Part shown: one piece after another, positions 13,443 through 53,700 of the stretch
Layout of the letters: each line of letters begins with the position of its first letter
Position numbering within the stretch: position 1 is the stretch's first letter
DNA from: Marsupella aquatica
Lineage: Eukaryota > Plantae > Marchantiophyta
Length of the DNA stretch: 64,000 nt
Direction: 5' to 3'
Assembly (NCBI GenBank): GCA_973895155.1
Contig: OZ316893.1
Location: forward strand, 16,832,645 to 16,896,644
The notes under the pieces: model-generated
Database searches by the model: none
What the model was told of the DNA's origin: nothing
The model's input: the letters and a program-made list of their open reading frames with translations, nothing else
Made by a program: the position numbers and the translations under genes

Positions 13443-13575
13443 TGTCGTGAGGTAATGAGTCTCCAACAGATCTTCTAGTCCGGGAGGTTTTATATATAGG
13501 TGTATGTATCATGTACACCCCTGGTTAGGGTGACTTAACCAGGGTAAATGGTGACTAGACGTGGGGATTATAACA
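13443..13575 (-). repeat. 3' LTR of the Bianca-like Copia
   Basis: TGT...ACA termini; matches 17852-17984; PPT adjacent at 13576-13586. Confidence 0.95.
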
Positions 13576-16427: not shown

Positions 16428-17837
16428 TGGGGTGGTGGCTCGATTCCTTTTAGTGGTACTTTAGGCTTATTTACTAGTAGGTATAGTAGGAAATGACAAA
16501 GCACATTTCTGCGGCATGCAAGGTGGGGCTGGGTGGAGAGAGCATGCAAATCCAAAATTCAATTTTAGGGTTTGCACTTAGGATTTAGGTTTTCCTTGGT
16601 ATTTGGTTAACTGCAAAGTTTCCTTTGTATTTTCTCTTTCCTTTGTTAAACTGTGCAGTAATGAAGTTTTGCAGTCTGTGCAGTTATGGGTGATTCTTTA
16701 CTCGTACCCTAGTTAATTGCACTTTCGGCTTTGTAAAGTTAATTTTCTTTGTTACGGGATGCAGTTATGGAGGTTTTGCGGTTATGTGCGCTTATTTGGT
16801 TAAGTGCAACTTTTCCTTTGTAATTGAAATTTCTTTGACAGATTTTGCAGTTAAAGAGGTTTTGCACTTAGCAGCGGTTCTCGAGGTTTTCTCGACATTT
16901 TTGCAATTTTGTTGCAAGATTTGTCGAGGTGCCGTCTTGCTTCCGGGGCTCCTTCGATCACGATTTCATATCCTCTCTCGAGCAATGTCTTCTTGAGGTT
17001 CTCCAATCAACCCCGGTTGCTCCTTTGCTTCTCTTTGTCGATAGTTTCTTCCAGATTCTCAAGGTACCGATTCTCGCTGTGACTTTCCTGAGCACTTTCT
17101 TCGCCTTATTTCTACACAAGCTCCATGGGACTGCCTTTTTGATGGTCAGAGGATCAAATGGTAGGGCTGCGCCTTCCTTCGCCTGTGTCACAACGCTATC
17201 CTGAATTCGTCTTCCTTTAAATCCAACCATTTCCTGGAATCTCCATAGCCCCTCTCAAGTTTCTTTGCCTCTTCGTTGTTCTGCTATATTGTCCTTACGA
17301 GTTCAAGTCTCAATGTCCCTGTGGCATTTCTTTGAAATTTTGGTGCTGCCTGTCTTTTCCTTTTTCGGCTCTTACAGATCTTCGATCCTAGTCTCTCAAT
17401 TCTTATTTCCTCATGATTCCTGGATTCACCTTGCTACTAATCGTTCTCATTCAATCCTGCCTACTCTTTTTGTTTTCTATTGGTTCTTCTCGATTCACTC
17501 CGCTCAGTCTGATCGTTAATCTTATACAATCCCATTCACCATTGCAATTCAATTTTCTGCGCTCGGTTCTCCGTTGTTATCTTTTGGCATATCCTTATGA
17601 ATGTTGTTTTTGTTTCTCTGCCCTTGGTTCTCTGCTTCTCAACCTCTCGCGCTCCTCTTATCACTTTTTGGGTCTGTTTCCTTCATTCGTCATTGGGCAT
17701 TTTTCTCCCCTATCCTTTCCTTTAAGCCTTATCAATCTGTTTCCTTATGAGTCTCGATTCTTGCTTTTCTTAATTTCTTGCGCTCCGTTGGGTCCTCGAA
17801 AAAAAATCTTAGCCTCCTTGCTCAGCCTCGGTGAGTC

Positions 17838-17851
17838 TCGTGCTGATAACG
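17838..17851 (-). promoter_or_regulatory. Primer-binding site complementary to the tRNA-Ile anticodon arm (half-tRNA priming)
   Basis: Plus strand TCGTGCTGATAACG directly inside the 5' LTR; resembles the plant tRNA-Ile(AAU) anticodon arm TCGTGCTAATAACG recalled from memory. Confidence 0.7.
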
Positions 17852-17984
17852 TGTCGTGAGGTAATGAGTCTCCAACAGATCTTCTAGTCCGGGAGGTTTT
17901 ATATATAGGTGTATGTATCATGTACACCCCTGGTTAGGGTGACTTAACCAGGGTAAACGGTGACTAGACGTGGGGATTATAACA
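17852..17984 (-). repeat. 5' LTR of the Bianca-like Copia
   Basis: Matches 13443-13575 except GGTAAACGG vs GGTAAATGG. Confidence 0.95.
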
Positions 17985-22453: not shown

Positions 22454-25400
22454 TTAATATTGGGGTAGGAAATATTTCTTGACACGGAACCCATTGATTC
22501 TGGTGTCGAGTTCTTGACCATCCAGCGTGGTGAGTGTAAGAGATCCATTTTCCCATACTTTAATCACATTATATGGGCCAAGCCAATGAGTATGTAACTT
22601 TCCAGGGAATAACATATATCTTGAATCGAAAACAAGAACCAAGTCACCTGCTTTAATATGTACTGTCTTCAGTTTTTGATCATAAATCAGTTTCCTTTTG
22701 GACTGTTGAGTATTAGTTTCTTGAAGGGCAAGGAAACGCTCTTCTTCCAATAAATCAAGGGTATCATATCGATAGTTTAAGCTGTCCTCTTTGTTCATCC
22801 TCTCTTCATCCAAAATTCTATGAGTAGGAACCTCAAATTTAACTGGTACAATACTATCTAATCCATATGTAAGAAAAAATGGAGTTTTCTTGGTGGTTAT
22901 CTTTTCTGCCGTTCAGTATGCCCACAGTGCTGAGGCTAACTTGGTATCCCAATCAACCTTATGAGTGGAGACCATTTTATTCAAAATCTTACCCATTATG
23001 CTATTAGCTCGCTCTGTTAGTCCATTTGCTCGGGGGTTGTATGGTGTGGTCTTTCGATGCTTAATAAGGTACTTGGAGTTAATAAGGTCAATAGTTTTAT
23101 TCAAGAAATGTAAGCCCCTATCACTCACCAGCTCCAAAGGGCAACCAAATCGGGTAATAATGTGTTCGAATAAGAAGGTAGCTGCAGTGTCTTCATTGTT
23201 CAATCTAGTATGTTTGGCTTCAACCCATTTTGTGGCATAGTCAGTTGCTAAAATAATATACCGGCTTCTGCTATATCTAGCTGCAGGGGTTATGGGACCA
23301 ATAAAGTCTATACCCCATTTTTCAAAGGGGGCAAGTGGCAAGATTGGAGTCAAAGGCCATTTGGAGGATGGAGTTGGTTTACCTATCTGTTGGTAGGGAT
23401 CACAACTTTTTATAAACTGATAAGTATCCTTGTGCATGGTAGGCCACCAATAACCGGCACCCTTAATTTTTTTAACATTAGTATTTACTGCAAAATGTCC
23501 TCCAGTTTGCTCCGTGTGCATAGCAAGGATTACTCAGGATATTTCTCGGGTTTCCAAACATCGATGCAATTTTTGGTTGGAAAGCAATTTAATTAGAACT
23601 CCTTTAATCAAGGTGTAAGGGCCAACCTTATGCATAAATACCGATTTCTCTTCAGCAGTAAGTCCAGGTGGATAGGTTCCATGTGTGAGCATTTGAACTA
23701 TATCATAATATTTAGATTCCTCTCCTTCAATATGCCAGATATGCTCATCAGGGAAATTATCTTCTAGAGGTTCTACACTCTCTTGACCAGGTAAGCGGGA
23801 GAGACAGTCAACATTATCATGATGCTTACCGGCCCGGACTTCAACTTCATAATCAAACTCTTGAAGTAGGAGTACCCATCGTGGTATTCTTTCGCTCAGG
23901 TAGGCCTGATTGACTAAGTACTTAAGAGAGTATCTGTATGGAAAATGGTCTTATAACCCAACAAATAATGTCGGAACTTTTTACAAGAAAATATTACTGC
24001 CAGAGCTTCTCGTTCAGTGACTGTATAATTTTTCTCAGTTGAGTTCATTTGGCGACTGGCATAATAAATAGGGTGGTCCTTTTTATTTTTGTCAAGTTGA
24101 CTTAAGGCTGCACCAACACAAAAAGCATAGGCATCTATATAGACATGAAATGGCTTTTCCCAATTTGGTGGTTGAAGTATGGGGGCAGAGGTCAGTTTGC
24201 TTTTCAAGGCATCAAAAGCTAGCTGTCGAGCTTCATTCCATATGTAATCCACATCTTTCTTTAATAACTGTGTAAGGCTCATGGCCAATTCAGCATAATT
24301 ATGGATGAAGCGTCTATAGTACCCAACATATCCTAGGAACGCCCAAAGTTTTTTCAAATTACTTGGAGGCTGTAAGGCTTGGATAATACAAACTTTTTCA
24401 GTATCCACTTCAATTCCTCTTTGTGATATGACATGACCTAGAAAAATTCATTCCTTCATTCCGATAAAACATTTATCTGGGTGGAGGCATAGCTGGGACT
24501 CTCGGCATCTCTGAAAAGTTTGCTCAAGATGATGTAAATGAAGTTTTGCAGCTCCATAAACACAAAAATCATCTATGAATATTTCTAAAAAAATTCTGAG
24601 AAAATCCTGGAAAATAATCATCATGATTCTTTGAAAGGTGCCTGGGGCATTCCATAAGCCAAATGGCATCACTTGAAATGCATAAGTCCCCCAATCTGTA
24701 GTAAAGGTTGTTTTATCTTGGTCCTCTTTTCTTATGGATACTTGATTATAACCAGAGTAGCCATCTAAAAAGCTGTAAAGTTCATGAAGAGCCATCATAT
24801 CCAAAACCATATCAATAAAAGGTAAAGGGTAATGATCCTTGCGGGTGACATCATTAAGTTTTCTGAAATCCTGACATACTTTGATCTTTGGTTTACCATC
24901 CGGTCCAGGCTTCTTTGGAACAATTACAATTGGTGATACCCATTCACTACTGAGTATTGGATAAATAAAACCGGCTGATAGTAACTTATCAAGCTCCTCC
25001 TTAACCATAATGGAATACTTTGGATTTAGCCGATACTTGCGTTGTCTTACTGGTATAGCCCCTGGTAACAAATCAATTCTATGTTCTCCCAATTTAGGAT
25101 GTATACCTTTAAGGTCAGTGTGACTCCAGGCAAAGACATCTCGATATTGTTGTAGCAAGGAAATATACTTCTCTCTTAATTCCCCTTGTATATGGTCACT
25201 AATATTTAGAAACTTTCCTAGTTCAATCTCCACCTTCTGACACTTCCTCGGGTCAACTATCCCATCAGTTAAATTAGCAGGAGTTTTCTCCCATGATCCC
25301 TCCAAGGCTAGTAAGTCACTGTCAGATCCCGACCCCCTGGTTAATTGTCATTTTGGTACTAACCCAATACTTTCTTCTTCTGTCTCAAATACTGAGAGAT

Positions 25401-25760
25401 AATTAACTTCTAAGAATTTTTGAGTAGTAGTTAGTAGATTAGAGTCCGAGAAATCAGAAGTATATCCGTCGTCACTTTGTGTTTCTCCTTGGTATTGGTC
25501 ACTAACCCAACGTAAGGTCACTTTAGGGTTTCCAAAGGATAATTCCTGATTCTTCCAGTTCACATTTACTTTGGCTTTATATAACCAAGGTCTGCCTAAG
25601 AGTACTGGAAAGCTGGAAGGAATATCAGGATTAATCACAATATAATCCAATAAAAAGGTAAGTCCAATGATGTCAGTGGGTACCTTCAACAATCGCCCTT
25701 TTGGAACCACTCTGGATTGATCAGCCATTCTCAATATCTTCTAGCGTCATCACTTTGATG
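22454..25760 (-). pseudogene. Ty3/Gypsy pol (protease, RT, RNase H, integrase), disrupted
   Basis: VLLGRPWL; SEWVSPIVIVPKK, VCQDFRKLN, DGYSGYNQ, MPFGL, FIDDF; YTVTEREALAV; PFEKWGIDFIGP, SDRG, NGLTERAN; WLGPY...INGFRVKKY. Confidence 0.95.
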
Positions 25761-27017
25761 ACATCCCTGCCAGGGTGCAGTCCTTCTTGGACTATCGGTT
25801 TGGCGATAGTCCAAACCCGGGCGGACCTTCCTCAATTGCAGCATTGCTCGGCTTTCCTATGGGAACACAGGGCCCCATGGCACCTCCTCTAGTAGCACCT
25901 GTGGCCAACTTTCCCGCATCAAAACAAGCACAGATGCCACCCCAGGCACCCTTAAGCCGCTCTCCCCCACTGGTTGCACCATCTACTTGTGCGCGGTCTG
26001 TGGTGAATGCAGTCAACCTCAGCTCAGAGGATGAGGAAGCCCCTTCCCTTCACCGCAATCCACTAGGTACCTATCACCCTGGGGCGGGTATCGTGCCACC
26101 GTCCCAATCCCAAACCCGGGAGGCAATCCTGATAGACAACACGGTGACGGTTACAGCCCCAACACTAGTACTAACGGCAAGGGTCATTGTAACGTGCAAG
26201 GAAATAGTAAAAACATTCCTCGCACGGGAACATTTTCTCCTCCATATATGCAAAATCTGGCATGGTTATCACCTTGCTAGCATGACTTGAAACTTGCTAG
26301 GACAAAACTAATCTGTTAAACAACAGAAAATTCACTATTCCACTCAATAACGAAACCTGTCGTGGACGGTACATTTGTACATATCACGTATTTCACGCAC
26401 AATTGGCCACTCAAAGCAACAATAAGTGACCATACTATTTGAACATACGTCAGGCCAGCAAAATTGCTAGCAATCGTGCCACCCATAATTCTTGCACGAA
26501 CTTTGGCATGCGGTCCTTAACAACGTGAAACAATCATCATGATAACAGACAAGGAGCGCATCCAAGGACAGAATCCAAAGCTTCATCCGGCCGTCGAGCG
26601 TGACACCCGCAACAGACAAGATCCCAAACCGTTGGGAAGGATCGATCTCCCACTATCCACCATCCCCTATAGAAACATCTCCCTCGCACCTTTAGAAACA
26701 TTTCCATTCATTCCATTTTGGATACTCTTTCGAGCTCTCTTTCTGTTCAACGTGGGACTCGAAACGCGCTTCTCTTGTTGTCATCGCGGGAGTCAAAGCC
26801 CTGTTGTGACTTGTGCTACTGTTGTTACAGCATTACATCAAGTTCCTCCTCAATCACAAGCACGATAGATTTGGCAGTCGGATCCGGATTGAGGTATCTC
26901 CGTTCTCTGTCATCTGTTTCCCACCTGCTGTTTGGTATTCTCTCAGGTACTCGTTGTCATCGGCTTTCTAGTTTGTCAACATAAGTAGACCTTGCATAAG
27001 ATTGTAAGTAATCTGAA

Positions 27018-27614
27018 TTGCATTGGTTTCTGTTACAGGGAGAAATGGCACGGAACGAGAGTAGAGCTCCTCCAAAATGGATTTTCAAAGTCGGGCGATA
27101 TTATGCCAAAACGGACGATCCACTGGACTCCCCACCAAGGTCCCCTCCACCGAAGCAGAGTACTGTCAACACTGTAGTGAAGAGCAATACATCTCCTTCC
27201 AATTGCGTGGCTCCCGTTGTCTCCAAGGACTCAAAGGTTGCCGCACCTTCTAAAGAGACGTTGTCCAAGGCGGTCTCCCGAACACCATTGTCTTCTCGCT
27301 CAAATGTCCCTATCTCTAAGGGGGTTTCTGAGAAGTGCAAGAGAGAAGAGGAGGAGTCATACTGGAGGACCTCGAGATCCACAACTATTGGACGGAAAAC
27401 GTACTCGCTTCCTCCGACTATGATACAGTCTCCGACTTTGATTTCGACGCGTACAAGGCATCGAGCCCTTAAACAGAAGTCCAATATCAGTAGTCCATCT
27501 TCTAGGGGGCATAGACATTTTGTAATAGTGTATTGTATCCTGAGTCTGGTCCCTGGACCTTGGAGTTGCAAAGAGTTCTTGGACATTTCACGTGTAACAA
27601 AGTTATATGTCTAA
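27018..27614 (+). CDS. Ser/Pro/basic low-complexity ORF, possible further MULE-B cargo exon
   Basis: 198-aa ORF with a possible TTACAG acceptor at ~27038 before MARNESRAPPKW; no domain recognised. Confidence 0.3.
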   Translation: MHWFLLQGEMARNESRAPPKWIFKVGRYYAKTDDPLDSPPRSPPPKQSTVNTVVKSNTSPSNCVAPVVSKDSKVAAPSKETLSKAVSRTPLSSRSNVPISKGVSEKCKREEEESYWRTSRSTTIGRKTYSLPPTMIQSPTLISTRTRHRALKQKSNISSPSSRGHRHFVIVYCILSLVPGPWSCKEFLDISRVTKLYV

Positions 27615-28027
27615 ACATCTTTGTTCATTTTGCAATAAAATCTTGAGAAGTTTGTCAGATTGTAATGTTCCAACCTGTCCTATTATTGCTAGCAACATCG
27701 CTAGTAAAACTATGCATGACTACAATGGTTTGTTTTCTTGCACACATGAGTTATGGAACTCTAAGTTAAGTAGATCTTCGTCAAACAGTACCCGTTTAGC
27801 ACAAAACCAAAAACAGTTACTTCACGAGTTTAATGCCAGCAACATCGCTAGCAAAATAAACAACAATGTGGACACTTACTGAATCATAATAGACCCTCAC
27901 TAACATTACATACACAATATAATTAGTGAGGTACAGGACCTTCCTCTGTTCTGAAAACCAGAAGGCAACAAAATGAGGGACGCAGAAATGTTCACCTCAA
28001 TGGATAATAGAGATTAAGTCAACTACA

Positions 28028-31000
28028 CTACAACAGAATCAAACTCCTCACTTCAGCAGCAGTCAAAATTGGCTGCTTCACAAGATCGTCTCTCTCTAGA
28101 TTCAGTGAAAAATTATTTAAGTACACCCACAGGAGGTGTTTACAAGACATGTGTGTGTCTCTTGTAGAAGTCATCACATGAACAAGAAGGAAAGCAAGTG
28201 GACCCAGCACTGGTGTGCAATTTTAGAATCTGTCTTGTGAGTGACGATAAGATATTGCCATCCCCACCCGTTTCCGAGACATATCTTCTCACTTCCAATG
28301 ACTCTCTTATGTTTGCCAGTTGCAGATCGAATGCGTTTAAGAAGCTCCGGGGTGTTCTGGAAACGTTGACGAACGCCTTTCCCATTCCAGGTCTTGAATG
28401 TACGGTCTGGACAACCAATGTCAACTCTTTTTGGGAAGGCGTTCACATCAATTTGGAGGTCAACACGATTTGGAGAAGAGAATGACCCGATCATTGCTGG
28501 ACCAGAGTATGATAATCCTCTGATTTGAAACCCGTTTTGAAGAAGAAAGTCAATCTCTGTTGGGGACAGCCTGGTCCCTCGCTGGACCTGCAATGCCTCA
28601 GGTGGTTCTGAAAGCTGGGCAAGAGTCCTTTTGCCACCTGTTTTATGGCACCTATTATTCGGACAGAGTACAGAAGCTGACAATGTGGAGAGGACAACCT
28701 CAATCCATGAAAGGCAACACCAACAACTCCAGCCCGGAATGCCTTCAATCCAGTTTCTTTGATGAGATTCCTGCACTAATCTCTTCCAAACACACTTTGG
28801 TCCACTCGTCCATTGCAAATATGTCCACTCCCTTTTCCACTCCGCCTCAAGTGCCAGGTCCCATACGTCACATCAACCTCTTCAATAAAAGGGATCCTTT
28901 GGGGTGCATCCCGAATTTCATCCCGATTATTTTGAGACGGTGGTATTTCTCCAACATAGTTTGGGTCCTATGTTGCATCTCCACGGCTTCGTTCTTCACC
29001 ATCATCTGATATATTAATAACTTCACAAGGGAGGGGAGGTCTAAGGCAAGTGGGATTGTCTTCATTGTCAGGAAAGTCAGAAGGTCCACCAATATCAGAA
29101 GCACCGCTAAAGTTACTAAATTTGGTGTAAGATTTCTTCTTTTCAAACTAGACAACGATGCTACTATGCGCAATATCTTATCATGTCAATGAGAATAGTT
29201 TTCATGAATAGAAGCAAAAGCACTACCCTTCCTTTTTCCTTGCGTTGTTCTAAGATCTCCATGTAAAGGCATTGTTCTATAGAACTCATATTTTCCAGAG
29301 GATTCAAATAGTAGATTGGATGCCTCCTCATAGGCATCCAACGACCCCATTGTATCTGCATTTCTATAGGCCAACTCAAATATTGTAGGACCATTGCCAC
29401 GATGACACCCTTCCAAGTATGCAGTGAACGCTGCAATTTGTCCCGTTGCTCAATTCTGGTCAACTTCACAGGCTTCCATCAAACCATTTTTCTTCTTCGG
29501 CTGGCAGGAACGCATTGATGCGTGAGAAGATTCAGCTCCCGCACAGTTTGGCATCAAAGCAGACTCCCTTGCAGTTTGCGTCTGGAAAATAAACAGAGTT
29601 AACACTTGTATTCACTAGCGATATGTCTAGCTTGAGGCATACTCATGTTTGAGTCAGTGACAGAAAAACCTTTACAAAAAGAAGTATTATGGCTAGCAAT
29701 CTCGCTAGCTTTAATGCATCACAAATAATGGCCCGGTACTTACCACCCAAATAAAGTTACCCCATTGTCTCCACTGCACAACCCACCATGAAATCCACCC
29801 TTGGAGTGATTTAAGCTTGGAACCTGGGTGACAATTCCCTTCTTTCCACCATTTCTGAATGTTGTCGGCTATACAATATGCTTCGACGTATGTTGGAGCA
29901 ATTCTTAACTTCTCCCACATCTTATAGTGCTCCGCATGACATCCCTCCTTGATTCCCTCCAAAGTGTGTCTTCTGAGGGATTGAGAGAAATGGAAAGCAT
30001 CACTATGCTCTTTCATTGGATTTCTGACACCCCCCAAAAATACCCTTTGGATAGCAATCCACCCAGCCTCCGCATTGTCTGCTATGAATCCTCCAATAAT
30101 GGGATTATTCACTCCATTCTTGGATGTGACATCTACCATTAACCTCCACGCAGTCTCAAGCGACTATGTGTCTTTGGCTCTCAACTCACAAGTGAAAATT
30201 GTACACAAAGCGCGTTAATTATGGTCATACACGTGTGCGCTAAAGGTCAACCATCCAGTAGTGATACGATGCATCACGTCAAAACTCACCAAAGAACCTT
30301 CCAAAACTCCTCCAGACTCCATGCTCCTCAAAATTTCCACACCAGATCCAGGACCATTTGTACTCATTTTGAATACATGCGCTCGATCATTTCTGTTTCC
30401 TTGACCAGGAAACAGGTACCTTTGCACAAAAGGGAAATTATTACATGATTGCATTTCACAAAGTGAGTCAAGTTCTCCTTTTTGGGGATTATCCATCTTC
30501 ACACTACGAAGAATAGCTTGGAACTTTGGAGTGGTCAAAACCACTCCAATCGAACTCCAAATTTCTTTCTATTCTTCTCTTGACAATTGAGCCGATGATT
30601 CTGGATGCAATAGGGAGACTAGGTTCCCAATTGACCGGTTTCTCAGACATGCAGGAGTTGAGACTAGATTCAACCTATGGACTCCTTAAACAACATCTTC
30701 CGTTGTTTTTCTTGTAGAATGAGATTTTCCCTTCCAAACGGGGTGGTCATTGAATCCCATATGCACAGCCAATCTGGACATATGCATTGAAATGTGACTC
30801 TCCAAACCTAGCTTAGGGTATACATACAATAGTTTTGTCGGGCAATCTCGAATACAGAGAGGCCTCTCTTCACAGAAGCCATAGACGAGTCCACCCTCAC
30901 TCACTTGCTCTCCAAGACGAAAGATGTCAGTCAGCAACCCTTTGCCTCTAAAAGTGCAGTCATTTTTCACTCAAGTATGTTTCAACTTCCGGCAACCCCA

Positions 31001-31813
31001 ATTATGGCATTCAAGAATGCTATCACAACGGACTTTTGACACAGCCCAATGAAACCTTGGCTTCAAATTTTCAAATGTAGTGACGAGTCTAGTCCAAGGA
31101 TAGCCATCCTTCTCTTGAACCATATCTTGGAGACCTCCTCCGTGCCCGACCCCCTTGACTGTAGGAAGTTCAAAAACAACGTTACCATTGTATGTCGATG
31201 GCGGACTCAAAACCTGACATTCATTCAATTGATTCCCTCTTCTAAATTGTGCAAGTTCACTTGCTCCACTGATATTGAGAAAAGCGTCATAAGCACTCAT
31301 CCGATACACTATGGTCATGCTATCCCCAGTCCTTTGAATCAATTTTGTCACTAACCCTTTGGGTTCGGAACCACCTCATGACTTCACCGACCCACAAGAT
31401 GTGTCTTGCCTTAGACTATCTAGAGATATTTCAATGACATCGGGAGCTATGTCTTTGGGAGGCATCCCAAGATCAATCATAGGAGTTTGATTACCGGGAG
31501 CTAAATCCACTGGTTCCAGAATGACATCAGGAAACTCATCTTTACTGGACAGAACCTTGACATAAGATCCAACCTTCAGTGTCCAAAATTCGGGGGAAGT
31601 ACTATTGTCCTCTCTCAACTCGTGACTCCGTGTTCCATTTTGAGAATACAACTCAAACAACTTCATGATGAGGTAATCTTTTGGTATTCCAAAACGAGTT
31701 GCAAGGAATGACTCTGTCACCCTCACCTCTGACGAACCAGGGATACTTGGCAGTACAACCACATCTCCCATGATTCTATGCTCCAAAACCACCTTGGAAT
31801 TCATCGAGATCAT
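28028..31813 (-). pseudogene. MULE-type transposase (GCM-like Zn, DDE, SWIM), many stops and frameshifts; intron 29582-29743
   Basis: Blocks homologous to MULE-A: GDVVV...ATRFG, VFELP, FKMSTNGPGSGVE, FDVMHRI, GFIADNAEAGW, SDAFHFSQS, MPNCAGAESSHASM, FPSCSCDDF...CKHLLW. Confidence 0.88.
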
Positions 31814-33523
31814 CTCTTCTCAGGATACAAAAAATAAAACGACTATGTTTTGAATCGTCCATACGACTCTTATTTGGAGGACCAAAACTTTGTTCATCCC
31901 AATGGAAACAACACATCGACCAAATTGTCAGATAGTTCCCGTTGATTTGACCGTTATTTTTTCTTTTACTCAATGTATTGGGACGGTTCCCATGCTAGCA
32001 ATCTTGCTAGCTTGGGTGTGCATGTTTTTGGACAAACATCCTGTTGATTTTGACCTCTTTTGAAGGAGATCTGTATCATGGTTTTTATGCTAGCGATATC
32101 GCTAGCCAAAAAGTAAATCCAATGTTTACAAATTTTACCGTTAGGATTCCATTGGGAATAGTCAATGGGTACCATAATGTCAACGGTACAAATTACAGTT
32201 GACACCTATACCATTTTGTATGGATAAGATTATCCTTGTCGTGAAGGTTGTTCTTTGGGTTTTCCAAAAAGTACAACTAGTGGTCTATGCCAGGAGATTT
32301 CTATTATTCCTTCCATCGTACTATCGATCGGTGTCAGTATTCACTATCGTAACTGTGTAAGGCTTTGTTGGGAGTTCCTAACAGTTTGTACGGCTGTCCT
32401 ATTTCTCCTAAAGGCGGTGCGGTGTGGACGTTTTTCATGCGTGCAATTGCTATAGTCTCTGGACATGACCACTCTTCTCCGAAGGGGTTTATTTCATGGA
32501 GTCATCGTTGTCTCTAGAGACTATTTCTTCGAGAGGATCATTTTAGTTGAGGGAGTCGACAAGGAGAGAAACCAGGTCAACAGCTAACAAGAAGGCGCTT
32601 GTAGTGGGCTTGAAGACTCCTAGACGACACAAGATGGTGACGGCGGTAGATGTTGTGGCTCCTGTGTTTGATCCGAGCGCTTCGAAACCTTACACGGTTG
32701 TCATAAACCGTCATCTTCACTCATTCGGAGTGAATGAGTTTGGATTTGCATTGGCTCCCCCTCAAATTCCTCTCTGCCGGATGAGGAACATGCAGATTGT
32801 TTGGTCTCTGCAGAAGGATTCCACTGTGATAGACACATTGAAGTCCGAGTTCAGAATGCAGGGTTACATCAAAGATGCGCCTCGCTTTTACGTTCAGATG
32901 ACAAACAAGGATGGAGAAATCCAGATGTGTATCGATGCCATCCGCGAAACTTGGGATGATATTTGGGTGTTGCAGAACGAGGAGTTTGAACGCGAATGTG
33001 ATTCTCATGTTTCTTTCCAGATTCTCAAGGACAAAATGTTTTGTGTTTTTGATGGAAACCACCAATTGTATTCGTGGGGCCAACTGGCGGAAGATCATCC
33101 AGACAATATTAAGTACCATCCTCGAGTTGTCTGCAAGATTTTCAAGGGTGAAAAAAACTCTTTTGTTCAGATTAAGTCGGCAATGCACGCATTGAACAGG
33201 TGCAAGTTCTCAGGATAATATTTTTCTGAAATTCCTTTTTTACCATATCACTTTCAGCTAGCGATCTCGCTAACATGAGAATGATGTGGAAGGTTAACTC
33301 AATGTCCTGTAGAGAACTCCTGGGTTTTGGAGGCTGAACGCGTCCAGAAGATTTTGAACAATGACTTGTCCGTTTACAAGGATATCATCGACGCTGAGAA
33401 TTACAAACTTTTCCAACATAAGATGGCAAACATGCGAAGGCCGCCTGGTATTCAAAGAACATGACACTGGATGCCTGCACTTATATACTATTCGCTGCTA
33501 ACATTGCATCGCAGACCGAGGAC

Positions 33524-36392
33524 CTGAGTTATGCCTACTGTCCCTGAGTCGAGGATCCTTACCTCTTCAGAGAAGACGAAAGCTTCGCTAATCCTTGACA
33601 TTGAGGAGGATTTTGAGGATTTTCAAACTCATTTCTTCAAGCAGATTTGGCCCCCCAAGACAAGAGAGAAGATCAAGATTGCATTGTTTCGGAGGAGAGC
33701 GAAGAGATACACTATCAATTTTTTGTAGACAGGGAAGTAGCAGACAAATTCTACTGGTGGTCCTACCCAGCTTGCTTCTCCCCATGGATAGCAGGAGTTA
33801 AAGAGGACCCTACAGGTGATAAGTTTGGGGAATATTGTATGTTTCCTTGCAAGGGAAGTGAAGCTCCAAGGAGATTGAGCGAGTGGGAGGTTCTTCACTG
33901 TCCATGGTATTTGAACTCGGACAAATGGTCTATGTAATTAGGTGATTATTCCAAAAAGAGAGTTAAAGTACCAAAACCATACATTTTAAAAAATTTTAAG
34001 TTTTTATAAGGCCCTTTAAGCAAAATTAAGTTAGTATAAGCTCAAATGGGTAAGGATACCATTGGAAGACGTCAAGGCTACTCTGGTTTTCACATATTAG
34101 AAGTCAAGACGGCAAGAAGTTGAAAGGAGCTTCGGAGGTGATCGCCAAGCAGGTGGCTGTCTTGTCTACTACTGGTGATACCTATCTGACACCCTACTTG
34201 GCGCACATTTACTTTTCGAGAGGCTGCTTATCACCAGTGGAGCTGAGCGATTGGAGGAGGAGAGCGAGACACTTTGAGCTACCTCAGCCAGAGTTAGTGA
34301 GAGAGTTGACTCCACCACCGACGACATCTCCGAGACCCCCTCCAATGGAGCAGACGACAGCACCAGATCTACCAGGGATGACTTCTCCCTCTTTTGTTGC
34401 TTCCACTTCTTATCCGTCATGGACTGATTTTGTTGGTGATGCTGAGCGACTAGCTAGTGTGGTTGGTTTCAACCAGCATTTGGTAGATGAGGCCACTAGA
34501 CTCTTGAGTTGTACCCCTCTACAGTTACTTGACTGTATTCGTGCTTTGCTTTCCGAGTCTCGTACCGTCCCACCCACTCATGTTTCACCCCTTGCACCTT
34601 CACCACAGCCTGATCACCCTATGGATGTGGATGAGCCGGAGCTACCTATTGCTGACCCTTCACTCCCTCCTCCATCCTCACCTACACCCCCTCTACCTGA
34701 TCCCATTCTTTCCCCTATCCCTCCTACATTTTCACCTGAGCACCCTCCATCTCCTACCCCTGAGCCTTTACCCCCTTCACCAGTACCCCCTCCAGATCCA
34801 TTTTCCTCTATTCCTGAACCTATTCCTGAACCTATTCCTGAACCTATTCCTGAGACTGAGCCTGAGCCTGAGACTATAGAGCCTCCCAATGTACCATTTA
34901 TAGCTCCTACTCCTTTGATGTCTCAGCCTCCTATTGTCTCTTCTGTTGCCGACATTGAGCCTCTTTTTGTCTTTCCCGCCCAGTTTGATAGGATGATTAC
35001 GTCACTCATCGACGCACACACTCCTCTTGCACCTCCTTTACCTCCACTTATGTTTGGTCGTGAGTCTTTTCCTTTTCCACACACCTACGACATGGTTCTG
35101 ATTTCTCGTGGTATTCTATGGCTACCTATCGACAAGCTGAGATTACCCACGATTGAGACTCCTGACCTTTGGAGTTGGGTTTATCGTTGTAGAAAGGTCA
35201 TAGCACCTTTCCCTCTTCCAGCTCCAGACATTCCATGGCCATCAGATTACTTTGTTTGGATCGGACCGGATGGACATCCCATCCGGAAGACCAGTGAGCC
35301 TCGTTTGATTCGTTACCGTGAGGACCTTTTCCGTCGACAGTATTTGAAGGGACAGAGGACCAAAGGGAAGATAGCCCTTGGTTATGTAGCTCGCCTCCCT
35401 CTACTTGTAGTCGACCCTCCTCCTATTACAGTATGAGATTAGTATTTTATTTTGTAGACTTTTACTTAGCTTTGACCATTTGACTATCCCTTAGTCAAAG
35501 TTGACTTTTACTTTACTTAGTTTAGACTTAGGAAATGAAGAGGCATGTCTCTTCATTCTCCTTAGCCCGTGGGCGATCTCATGTACTTATTGTGATACCA
35601 GTCTCATTTTGAGACAGTGTGGATAGTTATTTGCATCTCCTCATGTTGGAGTTTTGTCCCTTGTACGTGTAATGCAATTTTGCAAGGAAGATTCGCATAC
35701 CTTGGAATTTGATTACTTGTGCTAGGAGTCTACCCCTCCTTCGTATGGTAATGCATGTTGCAATTACCGTAAGAAGTAAAACCCATAAAAATACAGTTTG
35801 TGGAATGTATTAGAAGATCCGTTGGTCGGTGCCTAATCCAAACTACAACATTTGTTGTCCATTTCTGTATTTACATGAAGGACTTATCTTTGGAAGATAA
35901 GTATTGCATGAAATCAAGGAATAGAAATCTATATGATTAAGAAGTAGCGACATTCTTAATTCACGGATTTGAAGTACCATTGTGGTATACTGAATGTGCA
36001 TTAGTTTTTCTTTGGAATTGCGCATCGCTGAAGAAGGAAACATGTTGCCGGCATTTTAATGACACACTACTATACACACAATCTGAAACTTATCTTGGGT
36101 TTTGTGAGCATAGACACTTCTTAAACATAGATTTATGATAGAAACCTAGAGAGCAGCTATAGCAAGGTTATGTTTGACTTATCAACGTCTCAAATAATGC
36201 CATAGCTCTTTCTTAAGACATGGTGACGGAGTTAAATATTGCTAAACTATACCTCTAAAAGCTCTAAGATTCTGTTGTCCAGCAAATGTCACTTTGTTCT
36301 TATTTTATTAATTCCTTGTGTTTTATTTAAGATTCTATTTTTCTTATAGATGTTGAGTACCATCTCTAAACCACTCAAAACACTTTAAAACA
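33524..36392 (+). mobile_element. Composite retroelement/LTR-derived insertion within the MULE-B accessory gene
   Basis: Contains ORF 34120 (homologous to the Gypsy LTR ORF), AT-rich non-coding DNA ending ...TTTAAAACA, and no GCTAGC palindromes; boundaries approximate. Confidence 0.5.
34120..35436 (+). pseudogene. 5'-truncated Pro-rich Gypsy-associated extra ORF
   Basis: EVIAKQV...YLTPYLAHIYFSRGCL aligns with RVILSQV...TLPAYLCQLYFHGNCL of ORF 20050; 12-bp PEPI repeats at ~34810-34870. Confidence 0.6.
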
Positions 36393-39300
36393 TCTTTTCA
36401 TCCCATTCTTGTTCTTCCACGGGAACGAACACCGAGTTTTTAGCATATATTCGATGATATTTGCTTTTGATAGCATACGACAGTCTATGACCTTTGACAC
36501 TGTAGAGAAAGCAGCTCTTCCCATGATCAATCGGGGATTCCTTCCGGAATCTTACATCTTGGAGTCCAAATTGGCACCCACTGATGCTGAAGTTGGTGGT
36601 TGCGAGGCAATGGGAAAGGCTTGTCTTGGTGTAGCTGCCATAATGGATAGGAGTCGAGCTCAAAAGCCAAGAGAAGGAGCATTGAAGGACACATCCAAAG
36701 ATGGGTCCCAGTTATCGAGAAAGCCAAGTTAGTCTGTCAATTTTTTGTTACTTTTTATTTTCAAGTCCGAATGTGTGTCAAATATACAGACACTAATGGC
36801 TTTTGTTTCACAGAGAGGAGGAAGGGTGCGGCTTCTGAGAGTTTGAAGAGTGGAGCAGATGATGGTGATGAACCTCAGTCCCCAGATGTCAAAGTTACAA
36901 CAAAGAGCGCAGTGGATTTAGGAAGTATAAAGCATTTGAAACGGAAGCGGAATATCCAGATTCTTTCAGATTTGGACGATGAAGAAGTTTCAGTTGCTCA
37001 AGGTGTTGCTCGGATGTGTGGTTTGAAGATGGATGGGTAGAGACATTTCCTCGCTTGCAGCAATTTGACCGACACTGCAAACTCAATCAGCGTAAATAAA
37101 GTGAGGCCATCTTGGATGGGAGATGGAGATTGATGGATTATTGGGATGTCAAAGAGCGTGAGTGCCCGAACACTATCTTAATTAATGGAAAGCCTTATGC
37201 TGGGATTGGAGCACATTTGGGATTCATTTCTCTTCCAACTAGGCATAGAACACGCGTTACAGACAAAGAGGTCCCGTCTTGGAATGTTTGGAGCGAGAAA
37301 CTGCTGTATTATTTTTTTGGAGTGATGAGACCAATGCTTTCAGATGACGGATATGTTGCTGTGCTGCACAGCTCGAATTTCAATCACATGAGGCAAATAT
37401 TTACGATAGTCGAGAAAAAAACAAATTCAAACATGTTTAGCAATATACCGTTTTGTTGTCTACCCCTTTATGGAGAGCAGATATGGATATTGAGGTAATT
37501 ATCCCTTCAACTTTTGGAGATGTTTTATACTAGCAATGTCGCTAACAAAATGTTAATTTTCCACTCCTCAACATGATCGGTTTACCTATTATTTTTCCAT
37601 TTTTTGATTCAGTTAATGCTAGCGAGCTCGCTAACAAAGTTTTCAATATTTCTAAAGGATTATGGTTCTTTGTTCAGGTGTGCACTCTCATACTGGAAGT
37701 TTTCTGTCGTGTGGAATTTAATGCTAAGATTCCTAAAGACCCAGTGTATGTTCCTTTGACGTCTTCGGAAGATGCAAGACATAAGTCAATGTTGAGTGTT
37801 TGTTACCCTAAGACTGACCCATGTCCAGCAGCGGCTGTTGCTGGATCAAAAAGGCTTTCAATTGGGTTCATGCAAGCCGTGATGGAATTCCTCACAAAGC
37901 CCAAAGACATAGTCCTTGACTGGACTGTGTGTGACGGGAGCTCGTTTTCTGCCGGAGAATACTCCGGGAGGTTTGTTGTCGGTGTTGAGGACAGGGACAT
38001 TCTCCATTCCTGTGCTCAAAAAGGTTTAAACAGTGTTCTTGAGAGGCACTCGAGCAAGGCAAAGATGATTAAGGATCAGGCAGCCAAGGGTAATCAAGAC
38101 GCTGGGTCGGATGATGAGTTCACGATTCCAGGAGATGAACAGGCTGGGCCTTCAAGCGAGAAAGACGAATTCGACCTGGAGTAAAGTACTTGGCCTCGTC
38201 TGATGTCGGACTCCCTATTTGGTTTCTGTTGTTTTCTTCATTTTGTTGCTCTTCGTCAACTGATGCCGGTGGTTGCGTCAGTGATAGGAGGGTGGATTGG
38301 TTTTCTGAGGAGAGATTTCGTCTTCGGAAGGAAGTCCATGAATCCATTGTGGTTACTCCTGAGAAGCCTTTTACTCTTCTGTGCTATGCTGAGACATCGG
38401 CGAAGCAGGTTGATGAAGCTCCTGTGGTCTTGACTTGGAAGCGAAAGGTCTTCGATCAATGAGAGGTGCTCGAAGATATCTGGATTGTTCAAGGTTTATC
38501 GACAATGAGGCGGGGACAGTCCATCAGTATTTAGATGAGTCTGCCGAGTCCACAGAGAGGGAGACCAGTAGCGATCCTAGTAGTAGTGACATATCTGATG
38601 ATTTAGAGGATGAAGTTTATGACCGAACAAGTAGGAATTTGTAGGACTGGATGTATTGGTCGAAGTCGACTCTTACAGTTTTGCTGTGTTGGAGTTTTTG
38701 GCGATCCACACTTTCAATGTAAAGAGGGACCATATTATGATGGAAGTGTCTACTTGTGGTGATCTTTTTTCGAAAAAACAATGTGTGTGGCTCAAGTATG
38801 GAATGGATATGACAATCATGCATGGTTTTTCCTTGTGATTTTCTTTGATTATTGTAAGAGGTGGAAAACTGAGATATTTTGGCATTGTTTTCATGGAATG
38901 TATTAGGACTTCGAAGGCCAAAAATGCCTCTTTAACAATACCGCCTCGCTAGCAAAATCTCCTGTTTCCTCGCACCATACAATTCCTCGATGATTATTGT
39001 CTTCCCTTTATTTGGGTCTCTTGCCTGTGGTATCTTGTCTTCCCAGTTGTGCCCCTTTGTAATATATATTTCCGGAGCGGCCGAGGAAAACCTAATGTAC
39101 TATCCATCAACTCCCGGAAAGCTCTTACTGAGGCCGCTAACGAGGACTGAGTAGCACAACCCAGTGCCGGTGGGTACGGCTCCACTCTCTTGCTGCCGTG
39201 CCACACCAGCCATGTGATCTTCTTCGAGTTCATTTCGACTTCGAATCCAAAGCCGACTTTCAACTTTGAAACCTCTAATTCAAGTGGCAGCAAGTACGCA

Positions 39301-39668
39301 AGCAAAAGGCACCGGTGGAATTAAATCGATGCAGTCAACGCCTGACTTGATCGATATGATGCTGCCAAACGGTGAGCGCATCCGCGCAAATCTGACAGAG
39401 ATACTCTGTGGAATCAATTGCAACTCGGGCATCACCGATTTTTTCAATTAATTTCACAGGTCATTTTTCTGTCAGTGGCATCTTTCCACGTTTGAGAGCA
39501 GTCTATGAGGGTTTGGGCAGTCCACGAGAGCGTTTACAGCGGTGTACATTATTGCTAACCGTTACTCCGTCAGGCCATCTAATATTGTATCTTGTGTAGA
39601 GAAATGACGTTATATCATTTGTAATTCGTCTTGCGAAGGAGTCTTTGAGCTGTCTGCACTCTGCAGAC

Positions 39669-41825
39669 ATGGTTGAAGTTGGTGCTCTGTATCCTCTAAC
39701 CAAGGATGAGGAGATAGACGCGTCGATTCCCTCTTTGCCAATCCGTAAAGGATTGAATGAATTTGGCCGAAATGATTCTGCATTGTTTACTAAGCAAGTA
39801 AGTCGGAAGCACATCTCCATTGATGTATCTCCTAGTGGCACACTTGAGGTCGCCGTCGAGGGTCCGAATCCAATTGTCCTACGCTCTGGTCCCGGTAAGA
39901 AGAAACTGTTCCCCAAAAACAAATGCATTCTTAGGGATGGGGACGTGATTGAGTTCATTCCTCAAGAGCTTCCTTTCAAGTATATTTCAGTCACCGTCTC
40001 TGTTGCTGAAGCAAAGAATCTTTCAGTTATGAGGCCAGTGCTCCTCAACACAAGGAAGGAAGGGGCGCTGTTGTCTGAAGCACACCTCCTGGATGAACTC
40101 TGTCAGAAGAGGAAAAGTCAAGTTAATGAGGACGAGGCACTTGCCCGGCTGTTGCAGGAAGAAGATGAACTCGCTAGGAAGAGGAATTGTCAAGTTGACG
40201 AGGACGAGTCACTTGCTCGGTTGTTGCAAGAAGAAGTGAACACAGCTGCCGCAGGCGCTTTGGGAGAACCCGGTTTCTCAAATACTGGTCTGAAATACAG
40301 TGCAATGCCTGCCATCACGCAGCTCACGGGAGTAGATGTCAAACTTAAAAGATCGAAGATTGAATATCACGGAGGAGGTGGTGCATCGTCCTTTCAATTA
40401 ATGCGCACTCAATGTATCCCAAGGTGGGCGAATAATGGCTGCATTCGTATTCAGGACGTTATTCGGGGTGATATACAGTTGGCAGTCTTGTCTAATTACA
40501 TGGTAGACGTCAATTGGGTGTTGTCAGCATGTCCTTTGTTGCATACCGTTCCGCAAGTGGTTATGATACATGGAGAGGGTGGTCAGTCATTGGAACTGCT
40601 TCAAGCGAGCAAGCCCAAGAATTGGACTTTGTTCAAGCCACCCTTGCGTCTCTCTTATGGCACCCACCACTCAAAAGCTATGTTTCTGGTTTACCCGACA
40701 GGAGTGCGGATTATTGTCCACACAGCCAATTTGATACACGTGGATTGGAATAACAAAACACAGGGCCTATGGATGCAAGACTTTCCTTTGAAAGTCCCCG
40801 TCGGACAGATGAACAGGTCTGATTTTGAAAATGACCTTGTGGAATATCTGGAAGCTTTAGAGTGGCCCGGGTGTACCATGATATTTCCAAATATTGGTGA
40901 AGTTAAAATCAATGCAAATTTCTTTCGAAAGTTCAACTATAGTTCTGCTTCAGTACGACTAGTTGCTTCAGTACCTGGCTATCATCTTAGCCGTGATCTA
41001 ACAAGATGGGGGCATATGAAACTCCGAAAAGTATTGCAGGAGCAATTGTTTGAAGATAAATTCGAAGGTTCACCTGTTGTGTTTCAGTTCTCTTCTCTTG
41101 GATCACTGGATGAAAAATGGGTCCAAGAGCTTACAACTTCAATGTGTGCGGGTTCTACTCTTGAAAAGAAGCCCCTTGGTGTTGGTAAAGTGCAAATAGT
41201 GTGGCCGACAGTGGAGGACGTTCGTTGTTCTCTTGAGGGTTATGCAGCTGGCAATGCAGTTCCGAGTCCAGATAAAAATGTAAAGAAAGAGTTTTTGAGG
41301 AAGTACTGGGCTCGCTGGAAAGCTGAGCATGCTGGTCGCAGTCGAGCTATTCCACATATGAAGTCATATGTTCGATACAAAGGACAGTCTTTAGCCTGGT
41401 TTCTGCTAACCTCCTCAAACCTGAGCAAGGCCGCTTGGGGCTCGCTGCAAAAGAATGGTACACAGATTATGATCAGATCATACGAGCTAGGAGTATGCTT
41501 CTTACCCTCTCTGATATTGAGACCTTCGCTACGGCCTTTCTCTTGCACAGACAATGCGTCATCTGTCACGCAGGGAGGTCCCCGGACATCTCTGGTTCCA
41601 GTAACCGGAAATGATGAAGACAAAGTCCAACAAGGAAAGCTAGTGACTTCATGCCCGGTGATTGGGGCTGACGTGATTTCCACAGAGAACGTTGTCCGCT
41701 TACCAATTCCGTATAGCTTGCCACCTCCTCCTTATGGACCTGACGATGTTCCTTGGTCCTGGGATCGCCAGTACGAAAAACCAGATGTTTATGGAGATGT
41801 CTGGCCATGCAGTGTACAACTCTAA
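39669..41825 (+). CDS. TDP1: Tyrosyl-DNA phosphodiesterase 1 (FHA domain, two ubiquitin-binding-like repeats, Tdp1 catalytic domain); intronless
   Basis: FHA-like FGRND...VSRKH; DEALARLLQEE x2; YGTHHSKAM, HTANL, QFSSLGS, IPHMKSY, SSNLSKAAWG, IRSYELGV. First ATG at 39669; single open frame. Confidence 0.96.
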   Translation: MVEVGALYPLTKDEEIDASIPSLPIRKGLNEFGRNDSALFTKQVSRKHISIDVSPSGTLEVAVEGPNPIVLRSGPGKKKLFPKNKCILRDGDVIEFIPQELPFKYISVTVSVAEAKNLSVMRPVLLNTRKEGALLSEAHLLDELCQKRKSQVNEDEALARLLQEEDELARKRNCQVDEDESLARLLQEEVNTAAAGALGEPGFSNTGLKYSAMPAITQLTGVDVKLKRSKIEYHGGGGASSFQLMRTQCIPRWANNGCIRIQDVIRGDIQLAVLSNYMVDVNWVLSACPLLHTVPQVVMIHGEGGQSLELLQASKPKNWTLFKPPLRLSYGTHHSKAMFLVYPTGVRIIVHTANLIHVDWNNKTQGLWMQDFPLKVPVGQMNRSDFENDLVEYLEALEWPGCTMIFPNIGEVKINANFFRKFNYSSASVRLVASVPGYHLSRDLTRWGHMKLRKVLQEQLFEDKFEGSPVVFQFSSLGSLDEKWVQELTTSMCAGSTLEKKPLGVGKVQIVWPTVEDVRCSLEGYAAGNAVPSPDKNVKKEFLRKYWARWKAEHAGRSRAIPHMKSYVRYKGQSLAWFLLTSSNLSKAAWGSLQKNGTQIMIRSYELGVCFLPSLILRPSLRPFSCTDNASSVTQGGPRTSLVPVTGNDEDKVQQGKLVTSCPVIGADVISTENVVRLPIPYSLPPPPYGPDDVPWSWDRQYEKPDVYGDVWPCSVQL

Positions 41826-50734: not shown

Positions 50735-53700
50735 TCACTGCTTAGGCCTGCCCTTTCTTGCAGATCCCTCTGCATCTCTGCCTCGTTTGGGACCAGTACT
50801 TGGTCCTGGATTTTCTCTGGACCTACAGGCCTTAGCCAATTCGATGTGTAATTTGACATTGTTTTCCATTGTAGCATGGAAATCAACGTCTGTGTAATCA
50901 CCTAACACCCTTGTGGACCTGGATTCTTTGTGGAGGATTGTTCTCCATGCTATCCCCTTCTCATTGGGGTGGAAGAAAACCTGCTCCACTTGCTTTGGGA
51001 AAACGTAATCCATTTTCTTGGACACACCCAGTTCTCTATGGAAATTCACCTGCCAAAGACCAGACTTGGTATACCTCATACTGGCAGAGGATTTAGGAGT
51101 CCATGATGGATCTGCCCATTTCCCTTTGAAAAGAATCACCTCTTTCCTCAAGCTGCCATAATTCAGTACCAAGATATCTGTCAAGGCCCCTACATACTGT
51201 ACAGATTCTTCTATGGTTGCACCAGACCTGTCCACTCGCTTCTCAGTGAATGTAGAAGCCATCCCAGAATCAAAAGTGCTGAAAGCACCAGAATCACAAT
51301 CACTCAAACACCCCAAGGATGGAATAGTCCTCCAATGGTGCCCATAGGCTCTACATGCCCTATACAGTCGTGCCTTCAAACTAGGTGGTGTGGAGTATGC
51401 AGATAGTAATGACCGCTCAGACTCTTTCTCAAAATTATGGGTATTGACTAATGTTTGAAACCATTCCCTGAAAGGTGGCAATTCTTGGCAGTCTACGGGA
51501 AATTCCACTGGTTTTCTTCGATTGGCAGGCTTCCTCATCCACTCCTTCCGGAAATCCACTCTTCGTTTGGTAACAGTCTCATTGGTAGCATCATATATCC
51601 TGCATGGCAACAACAACACTGAAGACATTAGTGCACGATCCACCATGAATATACAAACACAATGGGGAAACATAATTATGATCCATATGCCTAAGGATAG
51701 GAGAGTTTCTAGGGTTTATGTACCTATACCATGGAGCCACTGTCTCTTCATTCTCTAATATATAATGATGCATGGCCATCATTTCAGACCAATCCAAAGT
51801 TATCGCCTTTGCAGCCCCTTCCAAAACAATGCCTGCAACGCCAGCATCCTCCTCCAACTCCCAGGTTCGTTTTCCCTCTCCCTTTGCATCAATCATGTAT
51901 TCAGAAAGAAATCCCAAAGACTCATCTAATACATAGCCTTCAGCCATAGAAGCCTCTGGACGTGCCTTGTTTCGTACATAACCCTTCAATACCTTCAGGT
52001 TCCTCTCTATTGGGTACATCCATCTGCCTGTAACTGGGCCACACAAGTCTAATTCCTCCACTAGGTGAATCATTAAATGGGTCATGACATCAAAGAAGCT
52101 TGGTGGAAAATGGATTTCCAAAATGCAGAGAGTGAATGCAACATCCATCATCAAATTCTCATACATTGAAGGGTCCCACACCTTCGTACAGATCTGGCGA
52201 TAGATATTGCTCACCCCAGCTATGGCCAAGCGAACCCCTTCATCAAGTAATCCCATTGTTGCCAGAGGGAGAATCTGTTGCATGAGTTGGTGGAAATCAT
52301 GTGATTTCAACCCAGAGAGTTTCTTGGATTTTGTAACACACTTTGCCAAAGAACTTGAAAAACCAGTGGGCCCTTTCAAGGTCAATAAAACCTCCAAGAA
52401 CCTTGTTCTTTCCTTCTTGCTCAGGCAATATGGGGCTGGGGGCATCAACAATTTGTCATCCTTACGCTTGGGAGCTGGATTGGGTACAAGCCATAGGTGT
52501 TGGCGCACCTGTAAGAGCTTCATGTCTTCTCTCACAGAAGGAGTGTCCTTGGTCCCAATGATAGTGTGCACAATGTTGTGTGCAAGATTCTTCTCACAGT
52601 GCATGGGATCTAGACAATGGTTAATGAGTAGTTTCTGCAGTGGACACACAATTCAGAAATTAGGGCATTGAATACAACTTTTGGCATCACTGGGCAGTAG
52701 TTTGTGCAGTGGACACAATTCAGAAATTAGTGCATTGAATACAACAATTACAAAATCTGGGCTACAGGAAGTATATGAAGAGAATATATTTCAAAGTCAT
52801 ATGAAGAGATTGCAGAAATTCATTGTAGTAGTATGGAGTCTTACATTCCAATAGGGCAACTTGTACAGACCAGTAGCCCTCTTCACTCCATGCACCTTTA
52901 TGGGGCATTTCTCATCCTCAACCTTGGTTCCTCCCTTCTTCAAATATTCTGTTGTCTCGTCTCCCCACTTCTTTCTATCAGAGCTTGTCATTCTACACGG
53001 TGCAGGTCGACTCTCAATTGCACCATCAAAGTATTGTGCACTATCTGGTCTACGAAAAAGATGCCTTGTTGCTAACCATCGACGGTGGCCACTGTACTCT
53101 AATTTCTGCAAGTGCTTAGAACCACGTGCCACACATTCTGGCCCACAGATGACACATCCTTTGTATCCAGAGTGTTGTTGTCCAGATATTAAACCATATG
53201 CAGGGTAATCATTGATTGTCCACAATAGCACAGCCCTAAGGTTGAAGTGTTGAGACAATCCTGGGCGTGGCAATTTGTCAAAGCAGGGCACTCCTTTCTT
53301 CCACAACAGCTCCAACTCCTCATAGAATGGGCCCAATATTATGTCTAGCTGTTCCTCTGTTACTGAATCAGGTCCTGGAATCAGCATAGCTAGCATGACA
53401 AAGAACTTCTTGGTGGTAAGCCAAGGAGGTAAATTGTAATTCAACAACAGTATTGGCCAGGTAGACCAAGCTGTGGAATTATTCCCAAAGGGATTCACCC
53501 CATCAAGTGCCAACCCAAATCGCACATTCCTTGGTTCAGCTGCAAATTCCCGATCAATATTTGTATCCACATGCTTCCAAGCCTTTGAATCTGCTGCGTG
53601 CCGAACCATGTTGTCTGTGCTTCTATTCTCATGATGCCAAGTCATGAGTTTAGATGTACCAGCAGTGGCATACAATCTCTTCAACCTGGGAATTATAGGG

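Follow-up and report, generated by a model that had tools for sequence, protein, structure and literature searches.

The transposon and its two divergent genes

We analyzed a window of 64,000 nt from the liverwort Marsupella aquatica (contig OZ316893.1 of assembly GCA_973895155.1, positions 16,832,645–16,896,644 of the forward strand), which contains a multicopy DNA transposon with a transposase gene and, head to head with it, a spliced gene that we designate the cargo gene (Table 1). The cargo gene is a single gene interrupted by an insert, and encodes a likely ParB/Srx-type domain followed by a methyltransferase fold that, across its family, has a degenerate motif IV and retains a GxG in motif I; additionally, an 18-bp palindrome recurs within the element and is confined to its non-coding DNA. 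The gene had been singled out in an earlier note, made from the sequence alone, as a ParB-like/amino-methyltransferase-like gene carried by a Mutator-like transposon.

Table 1. Coordinates of the transposon and its features in the window.
Feature	Position	Strand	Remarks
Whole element, multicopy DNA transposon	26181..38988	.	about 12.8 kb including the insert, 10.25 kb without it; left end tentative; based on raised summed contig depth
Candidate degenerate left terminal inverted repeat	26181..26207	+	20/27 matches to the right end
Palindrome half-sites	26274, 38946		in the main element
18-bp palindrome GCTAGCGATATCGCTAGC, ten copies	26454..37635		0–4 mismatches; starts at 26454, 27688, 27835, 29614, 29692, 31994, 32089, 33257, 37529, 37618
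Possible third gene	27040..27614	+	Ser/Pro/Lys-rich frame after an AG acceptor; convergent with the transposase gene; no family match
Broken DDE transposase gene, Mutator/IS256-like	~28031–31819	-	GT-AG intron 29582–29743
Cargo exon 1	32496..33199	+	domain of likely ParB/Srx fold; DGNHQ in this copy and DGNHR in relatives; stop soon after the start, at 32544
Cargo exon 2, first part	33313..33932	+	5' boundary tentative; disrupted by stops and frameshifts; matches no family
Solo-LTR-like insert	33933..36482	.	2,550 bp; TG...CA; 5-bp duplication GTCTA on both sides; no palindrome
Cargo exon 2, second part	36488..36727	+	frame matches the first part once the insert is set aside
Cargo exon 3	36814..37494	+	basic/acidic linker; methyltransferase fold, first half, with SLPT as motif IV (AHLGFISLPT from 37211)
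Cargo exon 4	37678..38184	+	methyltransferase fold, second half, with motif I (DWxxGxG in the family); acidic tail
Right terminal block, about 45 bp	38944..38988	-	contains a palindrome half-site

The extent of the element was deduced from public contigs of four runs from two studies, placed at 80% likeness. Summed contig depth over 25702–39524 was 590–4928 in run X1, as compared to 57 over the neighboring intronless TDP1 gene; summed depth does not equal copy number, and the window itself may derive from the best runs. This pattern is that of a repeat family spanning the transposase and cargo genes. The right end is sharp: past position 38988, 21, 6, 21, and 17 contigs from the four runs diverge into unlike flanks, with a depth spike at 38951–38991 and loose contig ends before 38944, and the final 45 bp of the element are common to many more loci. 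The raised depth over both genes and the shared right end bear out the residence of the cargo gene in a multicopy transposon. Over 25 nt, the left-end candidate is the closest match that the window offers (7 mismatches, with 9 for the runner-up; about 0.03 such matches are expected window-wide, for a match length picked after the fact). No target-site duplication, which typically spans 8–11 bp in Mutator-like elements (MULEs), was found at the element ends, and the left end may be damaged; with this and an inverted match in 20 of 27 positions, the left end is therefore only tentative.

The transposase appears from its sequence to be of the DDE type and is likely a Mutator transposase. An hhalign comparison with 24 IS256-type proteins yielded a weak match (E = 0.007–0.009) in the expected register, in which ADNAE and DAFH line up with the IS256 second-Asp and CxxH regions (DDE core and (C/D)xxH), and we take AES to be the third acidic site. 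This alignment scored above 30/30 shuffles for the transposase of the main element, whereas for its paralog alone, encoded at 1976–6034 and with a core 47% identical, 5/30 shuffles scored as high. There was no match to a Pfam MULE family at E ≤ 1, and a SWIM match (E = 0.13) was found only for the paralog; likewise, alignments against metagenome and viral contigs retrieved no locus, and there was no PDB match. The description as Mutator-like is reasonable, and the more specific label "MULE-B" is tentative.

All the peptides quoted earlier for the cargo gene were found in the plus strand within 32496–38184: FDGNHQL at 33048–33068, ILINGKPY and RPMLSDDG inside 37160–37414, and TKPKDIVLDW..DGSS..AG..SGR.VVGVE inside 37678–38184. 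The gene is divergent from the transposase gene and this copy is a pseudogene, as had also been noted: at least five stops interrupt the frame (32544, 33462, ~37038, ~37132, and 37438), and the frame shifts three times or more; it yields no protein. Some of the lesions, e.g., those at 37438 and 33712, are absent from other copies in the public contigs. The introns at 36728–36813 and 37495–37677 are clean GT-AG introns that keep the frame, and the latter is corroborated by relatives whose sequence runs straight across it; this does not extend to the first intron (donor at 33200), for which the obvious AG at 33311–33312 breaks the frame. An alternative frame at 36983–37160 was dropped because relative P0001 reveals the true frame.

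The TG...CA ends of the insert and the flanking GTCTA duplication are the signature of a solo long terminal repeat (LTR). The insert, a separate repeat of higher depth, also contains a 460-aa proline-rich frame at 34054–35436. An insertion separating the two halves had thus been correctly recognized, but it measures 2,550 bp and not 2.9 kb. In two of the four runs there are contigs that join 33927 to 36483 without the insert (two contigs from X1 and one from X5), and a Logan cluster (P0048/P0055/P0056) matches the beginning of exon 1 and a segment of exon 4 within one frame, as an internal deletion would produce. This cluster, the insert-free joint and the continuity of the reading frame over the site indicate that a single gene was split. 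No full-length ParB-like/methyltransferase fusion protein was found in any database searched, and word-indexed protein searches, whose negative result is weak evidence, retrieved no longer relatives of exons 1 and 4.

The two halves of the cargo product

Judging from its deduced sequence, exon 1 probably adopts a ParB/Srx fold. Its nearest neighbors in the ESM Atlas are fungal DUF3723 clusters (0.96, with 189/256 features shared), in which 31–47% of the members carry the DUF3723 annotation, and a ParB_N cluster appears at rank 28 (0.90; ParB_N on 11% of its members). In four contigs from run X5, the loose end after position 33058 reads N-H-R-L-Y-S-W by hand translation, so relatives carry DGNHR and contain the G-x-x-R core motif of ParB/Srx proteins, where the copy in the window has Q. 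We assume that D-G-x-H-R is the ParB/Srx pattern, and the layout of exon 1 presumably fits this fold, with an IPL strand, Arg, a Gly-ended helix, a strand, an insertion, a strand ending in DGNHR, a helix, a strand, and an Asn-ended helix. Additionally, a profile of 12 DndB-type proteins, a group described as belonging to the ParB superfamily in the portion of PMC10853773 consulted, matches the motif region of exon 1 (E = 0.0019, above 100/100 shuffles). The ParB-like assignment of the earlier note therefore retains moderate support from the Atlas neighbors and the DndB profile, set against the library and chromosomal ParB comparisons given below.

Besides the order of predicted elements, exon 1 and its surroundings resemble ParB-parS and DndB systems in that the dispersed palindromes recall parS; unlike chromosomal ParB, however, exon 1 has no GERRxRA CTPase box, about 45 residues are inserted ahead of the motif, we identified no helix-turn-helix, and the cargo gene is not accompanied by ParA. 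DUF3723 genes (PF12520) are described, in the accounts available to us, as conserved cargo of fungal Starships without known function, and are likewise accessory genes of eukaryotic mobile elements; they differ in that exon 1 does not match the Pfam HMM, Starships use a tyrosine recombinase and those accounts report no methyltransferase half. A ParB/Srx fold can accordingly be offered as a hypothesis for Starship DUF3723. Relatives of exon 1 were not found in metagenome contigs, phages or plasmids, and its single-sequence structure model was unusable (predicted local distance difference test, 33.5). Other candidates were rejected: a genome match (L004) is antisense to a membrane-protein gene, matches in 3/401 bacterial genomes are at chance level and in unrelated frames, and PDB galectin matches were judged to be due to chance.

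In a search of 1.84 billion proteins, the methyltransferase exon had 47 matches at E ≤ 0.001, including 31 at E ≤ 1e-10, and these are therefore not due to chance; three of the 47 (P0024, P0036, and P0040) are repeat proteins and were dropped, and alignment A2 leaves out 13 further short matches. The core is 34–63% identical across more than 40 clusters, and Calypogeia contains three cargo paralogs, each on a different large contig. The beta-class amino-methyltransferase fold (PF01555) proposed earlier was recovered, as a permuted Rossmann fold in which motif IV precedes motif I, in a test made on P0004, a relative with 44% identity across exon 4. Conversely, GKPY is not the equivalent of DPPY: in an alignment to three phage methylases it is SLPT that faces DPPY, and GKPY is not kept in relatives. 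WTVCDG does depart from the canonical motif I, although it is merely the variant in this copy of the family motif DWxxGxG; the S-adenosylmethionine (SAM)-binding GxG occurs in 26/31 rows, and the window copy has C in place of the first G. For motif IV, none of seven rows matches (D/N/S)PP(Y/F/W) or keeps the base-stacking aromatic residue, and four have F, C, or A in the first position. As motif IV is degenerate throughout the family, and not just in the pseudogene, the fold is probably catalytically dead, as had been suspected.

Self-marking by methylation, the leading idea in the earlier note, is consequently disfavored. It is improbable, in our estimation, that the cargo is an active, atypical N4C/N6A (cytosine-N4 or adenine-N6) methyltransferase that marks its own element, e.g., at the palindromes, after being loaded by the ParB-like half. 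The conserved fold and GxG, and the Ser with which motif IV begins in this clade, as in N4C enzymes, would agree with activity; so would the DPPT of a Riccia protein and the report, in the part of PMC10406627 available, that the second residue of motif IV contributes only a backbone carbonyl, so that Leu could serve. Nevertheless, the stacking aromatic residue is lost in all seven rows and the first position is altered in most, and in rotifer N4CMT changing Ser and Tyr to Ala abolishes activity (PMC8885841, consulted in part). The Riccia sorocarpa protein (P0049, KAL3696265.1), with a near-full match to the N6_N4_Mtase model, is the most canonical member and, on sequence, the best candidate for residual activity; this form may stand closer to an active ancestor.

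The cargo shares with beta-class methylases such as M.MboIIA, CcrM, M1.HpyAVI/DpnA, and M.PvuII (PF01555) the fold, the order of motifs IV and I, the GxG and the acidic strand end after it, but differs from them in its motif IV, xLP[TN] or DPPT without an aromatic residue, in having DW for DPF, and in being spliced and borne by a plant transposon. A kinship with rotifer N4CMT and Marchantia DN4MT1 was not substantiated: the available portions of PMC8885841 and bioRxiv 2021.02.12.428880 describe these as active host enzymes with SPPY/TSPPY, as opposed to SLPT; N4CMT scores no better than bacterial enzymes against the cargo, and DN4MT1 is set apart by the motif quoted there alone. A prokaryotic origin is supported by the fold and because all named non-plant matches are bacterial or phage enzymes, although no donor can be named. 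The sections of PMC4738411 consulted describe eukaryotic amino-methylase clades that are algal, fungal or protist, some of the algal ones derived from phage ParB loci, and none from a land-plant DNA transposon. They also report that DIRS1 retrotransposons retain a catalytically dead amino-methyltransferase domain, as we predict here, but this belongs to the PCIF1-related group and is part of a retroelement polyprotein. Together, our comparisons suggest that bacterial-type methyltransferase folds form a family that is widespread in liverwort repeats and separate by its motif from DN4MT1, within the sole plant group with reported N4-methylcytosine.

Dispersed palindromes and the possible role of the cargo gene

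There are no further copies of GCTAGCGATATCGCTAGC elsewhere in the window at ≤5 mismatches, and the exact palindrome was not found in viral contigs. The region 27000–39200 contains nine copies, as compared to a mean of 0.025 in 200 simulated sequences, with a consensus that was derived from the sequence itself. All ten copies are restricted to introns and to intergenic or subterminal DNA, together 32% of the element; the LTR has none. At the right end, other copies of the element regain a second half-site at 38931–38932. Relative P0016, an intron read-through, encodes the palindrome at the homologous position, above the shuffled background.

ParB folds are dimeric DNA binders. The same applies to beta-class methyltransferases, according to the part of PMC10406627 consulted. 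VANC proteins, as far as covered in the accessible text of PMC5735166, bind to short motifs that are specific to the family and lie in the introns, between the genes and in the terminal regions of their MULEs, and they reduce DNA methylation. By analogy with VANC in VANDAL elements, we tentatively favor a reading in which the cargo is a non-catalytic self-recognition factor, a putative binder of the 18-bp palindromes that acts on its own family. The divergent spliced gene would supply a ParB/Srx-type domain joined to a dead beta-class methyltransferase fold; the dimeric product would read the two-fold symmetric palindrome, and occupied sites in the promoter, introns and subterminal DNA would shield the element from host silencing by 5-methylcytosine or, alternatively, help gather its ends. 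The methyltransferase fold would then be a DNA-gripping, possibly SAM-binding module, and not a writer. The anti-silencing idea of the earlier note thereby gains circumstantial support from the palindromes, which it had not reported. As in VANDAL elements of Arabidopsis (PMC5735166 and PMC6446971, both consulted in part), the terminal repeats of this MULE-type element are short or degenerate, it carries an accessory gene, and a family-specific motif is concentrated in its non-coding DNA. It differs from them in that the cargo has methyltransferase and likely ParB/Srx folds, the anti-silencing role is putative, and the motif is a dispersed palindrome, whereas VANDAL targets form tandem arrays; a comparison restricted to Pfam assigned none of the cargo pieces to a VANC-type family (E ≤ 1).

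Several results weigh against this proposal. Exon 1 has no match in Pfam, PHROG, NCBIfam, PADLOC, or PDB sequences; the DndB profile match has a probability of 14.5%; and a profile of 30 chromosomal ParBs, all from one bacterial phylum, gave E = 0.69, with 56/60 shuffles as high. All four named liverwort gene models start after the ParB-like half, and therefore the fusion is documented only for this species group and one other cluster. The confinement of the palindrome to non-coding DNA is partly forced, because CTAG makes a stop in one frame, and its traces in P0001 and P0002 are not above the shuffled background. Lastly, a second element in the window has a dispersed motif yet no cargo homolog in its visible part, and a half-site of the palindrome lies inside the terminal 45 bp; both fit the transposase as the binder.

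In this nearest rival, which is possible but which we regard as doubtful, the transposase binds the subterminal and internal palindromes, and the cargo is a non-catalytic accessory, e.g., a partner or decoy for the host methylation machinery or a nucleotide-binding switch. The terminal block with its half-site is common to many loci, and the second half-site at 38931–38932 in other copies is in line with it. Additionally, the second element, despite the 47% identity of the transposase cores, has F-box-like frames and not this cargo, and a different, 23-bp imperfect palindrome, with about 50 sites (raw count) in 17–9850, one of them at 4459 in the same transposase intron. However, most copies of GCTAGCGATATCGCTAGC are found at a distance from the ends, within introns of the cargo gene and the promoter region that both genes share, and the left arm of the second element leaves the window, so that a divergent cargo gene could exist there.

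That the cargo is a captured host or foreign gene, carried as a Pack-MULE-type passenger that does nothing for the element, we consider quite unlikely. Gene-fragment capture is frequent in MULEs (PMC6446971, consulted in part) and the linkage of cargo and transposase is known from this host alone, but the palindrome of the element sits in the cargo introns and is kept in one relative, and the conservation of the core across clusters and the three Calypogeia paralogs also speak against a mere passenger.

Returning to the cargo as a self-recognition factor, a broader and rather speculative extension, which we would not rate as probable, is that liverwort-type Mutator elements built a parS/ParB-like system from prokaryotic parts, which would load at the family palindromes to protect or organize the element; it would be a counterpart to VANC of independent origin, and a relative, in plants, of the Starship DUF3723 genes. 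We found no paper describing a cargo-type gene of this kind in plant DNA transposons, in a search that left most subscription papers and supplements outside, and the survey table of MULEs in PMC6446971, as far as it was available, lists no such accessory gene. MULEs with an accessory gene are already known; our results suggest that an accessory gene of likely ParB type with a pseudo-methyltransferase is new. If true, plant DNA transposons would have a second, unrelated route to self-recognition, with a named candidate site, and an anti-silencing factor with sequence specificity would be useful as a tool for epigenome work.

Other features of the window

The second element occupies positions 1–9900; its transposase gene (plus strand) has an 848-aa open frame and the same intron position as that of the main element. 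As is the case for VANC targets, many of its 23-bp palindromes belong to tandem arrays (169, 128, and 26 bp), and short telomere-like TAGGGTTTAGGG runs occur at 6140–6920 inside its 264–292 bp repeats. Its frames 6974–7714 and 8216–9050 are related (32% identical, E = 2e-13), have an F-box-like IPGLPD motif and are possible accessory genes.

The intronless TDP1 gene (39600–41825; FHA plus tyrosyl-DNA phosphodiesterase, E = 4e-97) is single-copy by depth and starts about 680 bp from the right end of the main element. Further downstream are a CACTA-type element (50738–55997; Transposase_21, E = 5e-66), with an adjoining NSD-like PHD-finger frame that is a possible chromatin-reader cargo, and an array of tandem repeats of about 577 bp (59800–64000), each unit with a near-perfect 30-bp palindrome. 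Upstream of the main element, there is a Copia-like retroelement with two near-identical short LTRs (13447–17984), as well as Gypsy-like pol fragments at 11800–13000 and 22457–25740.
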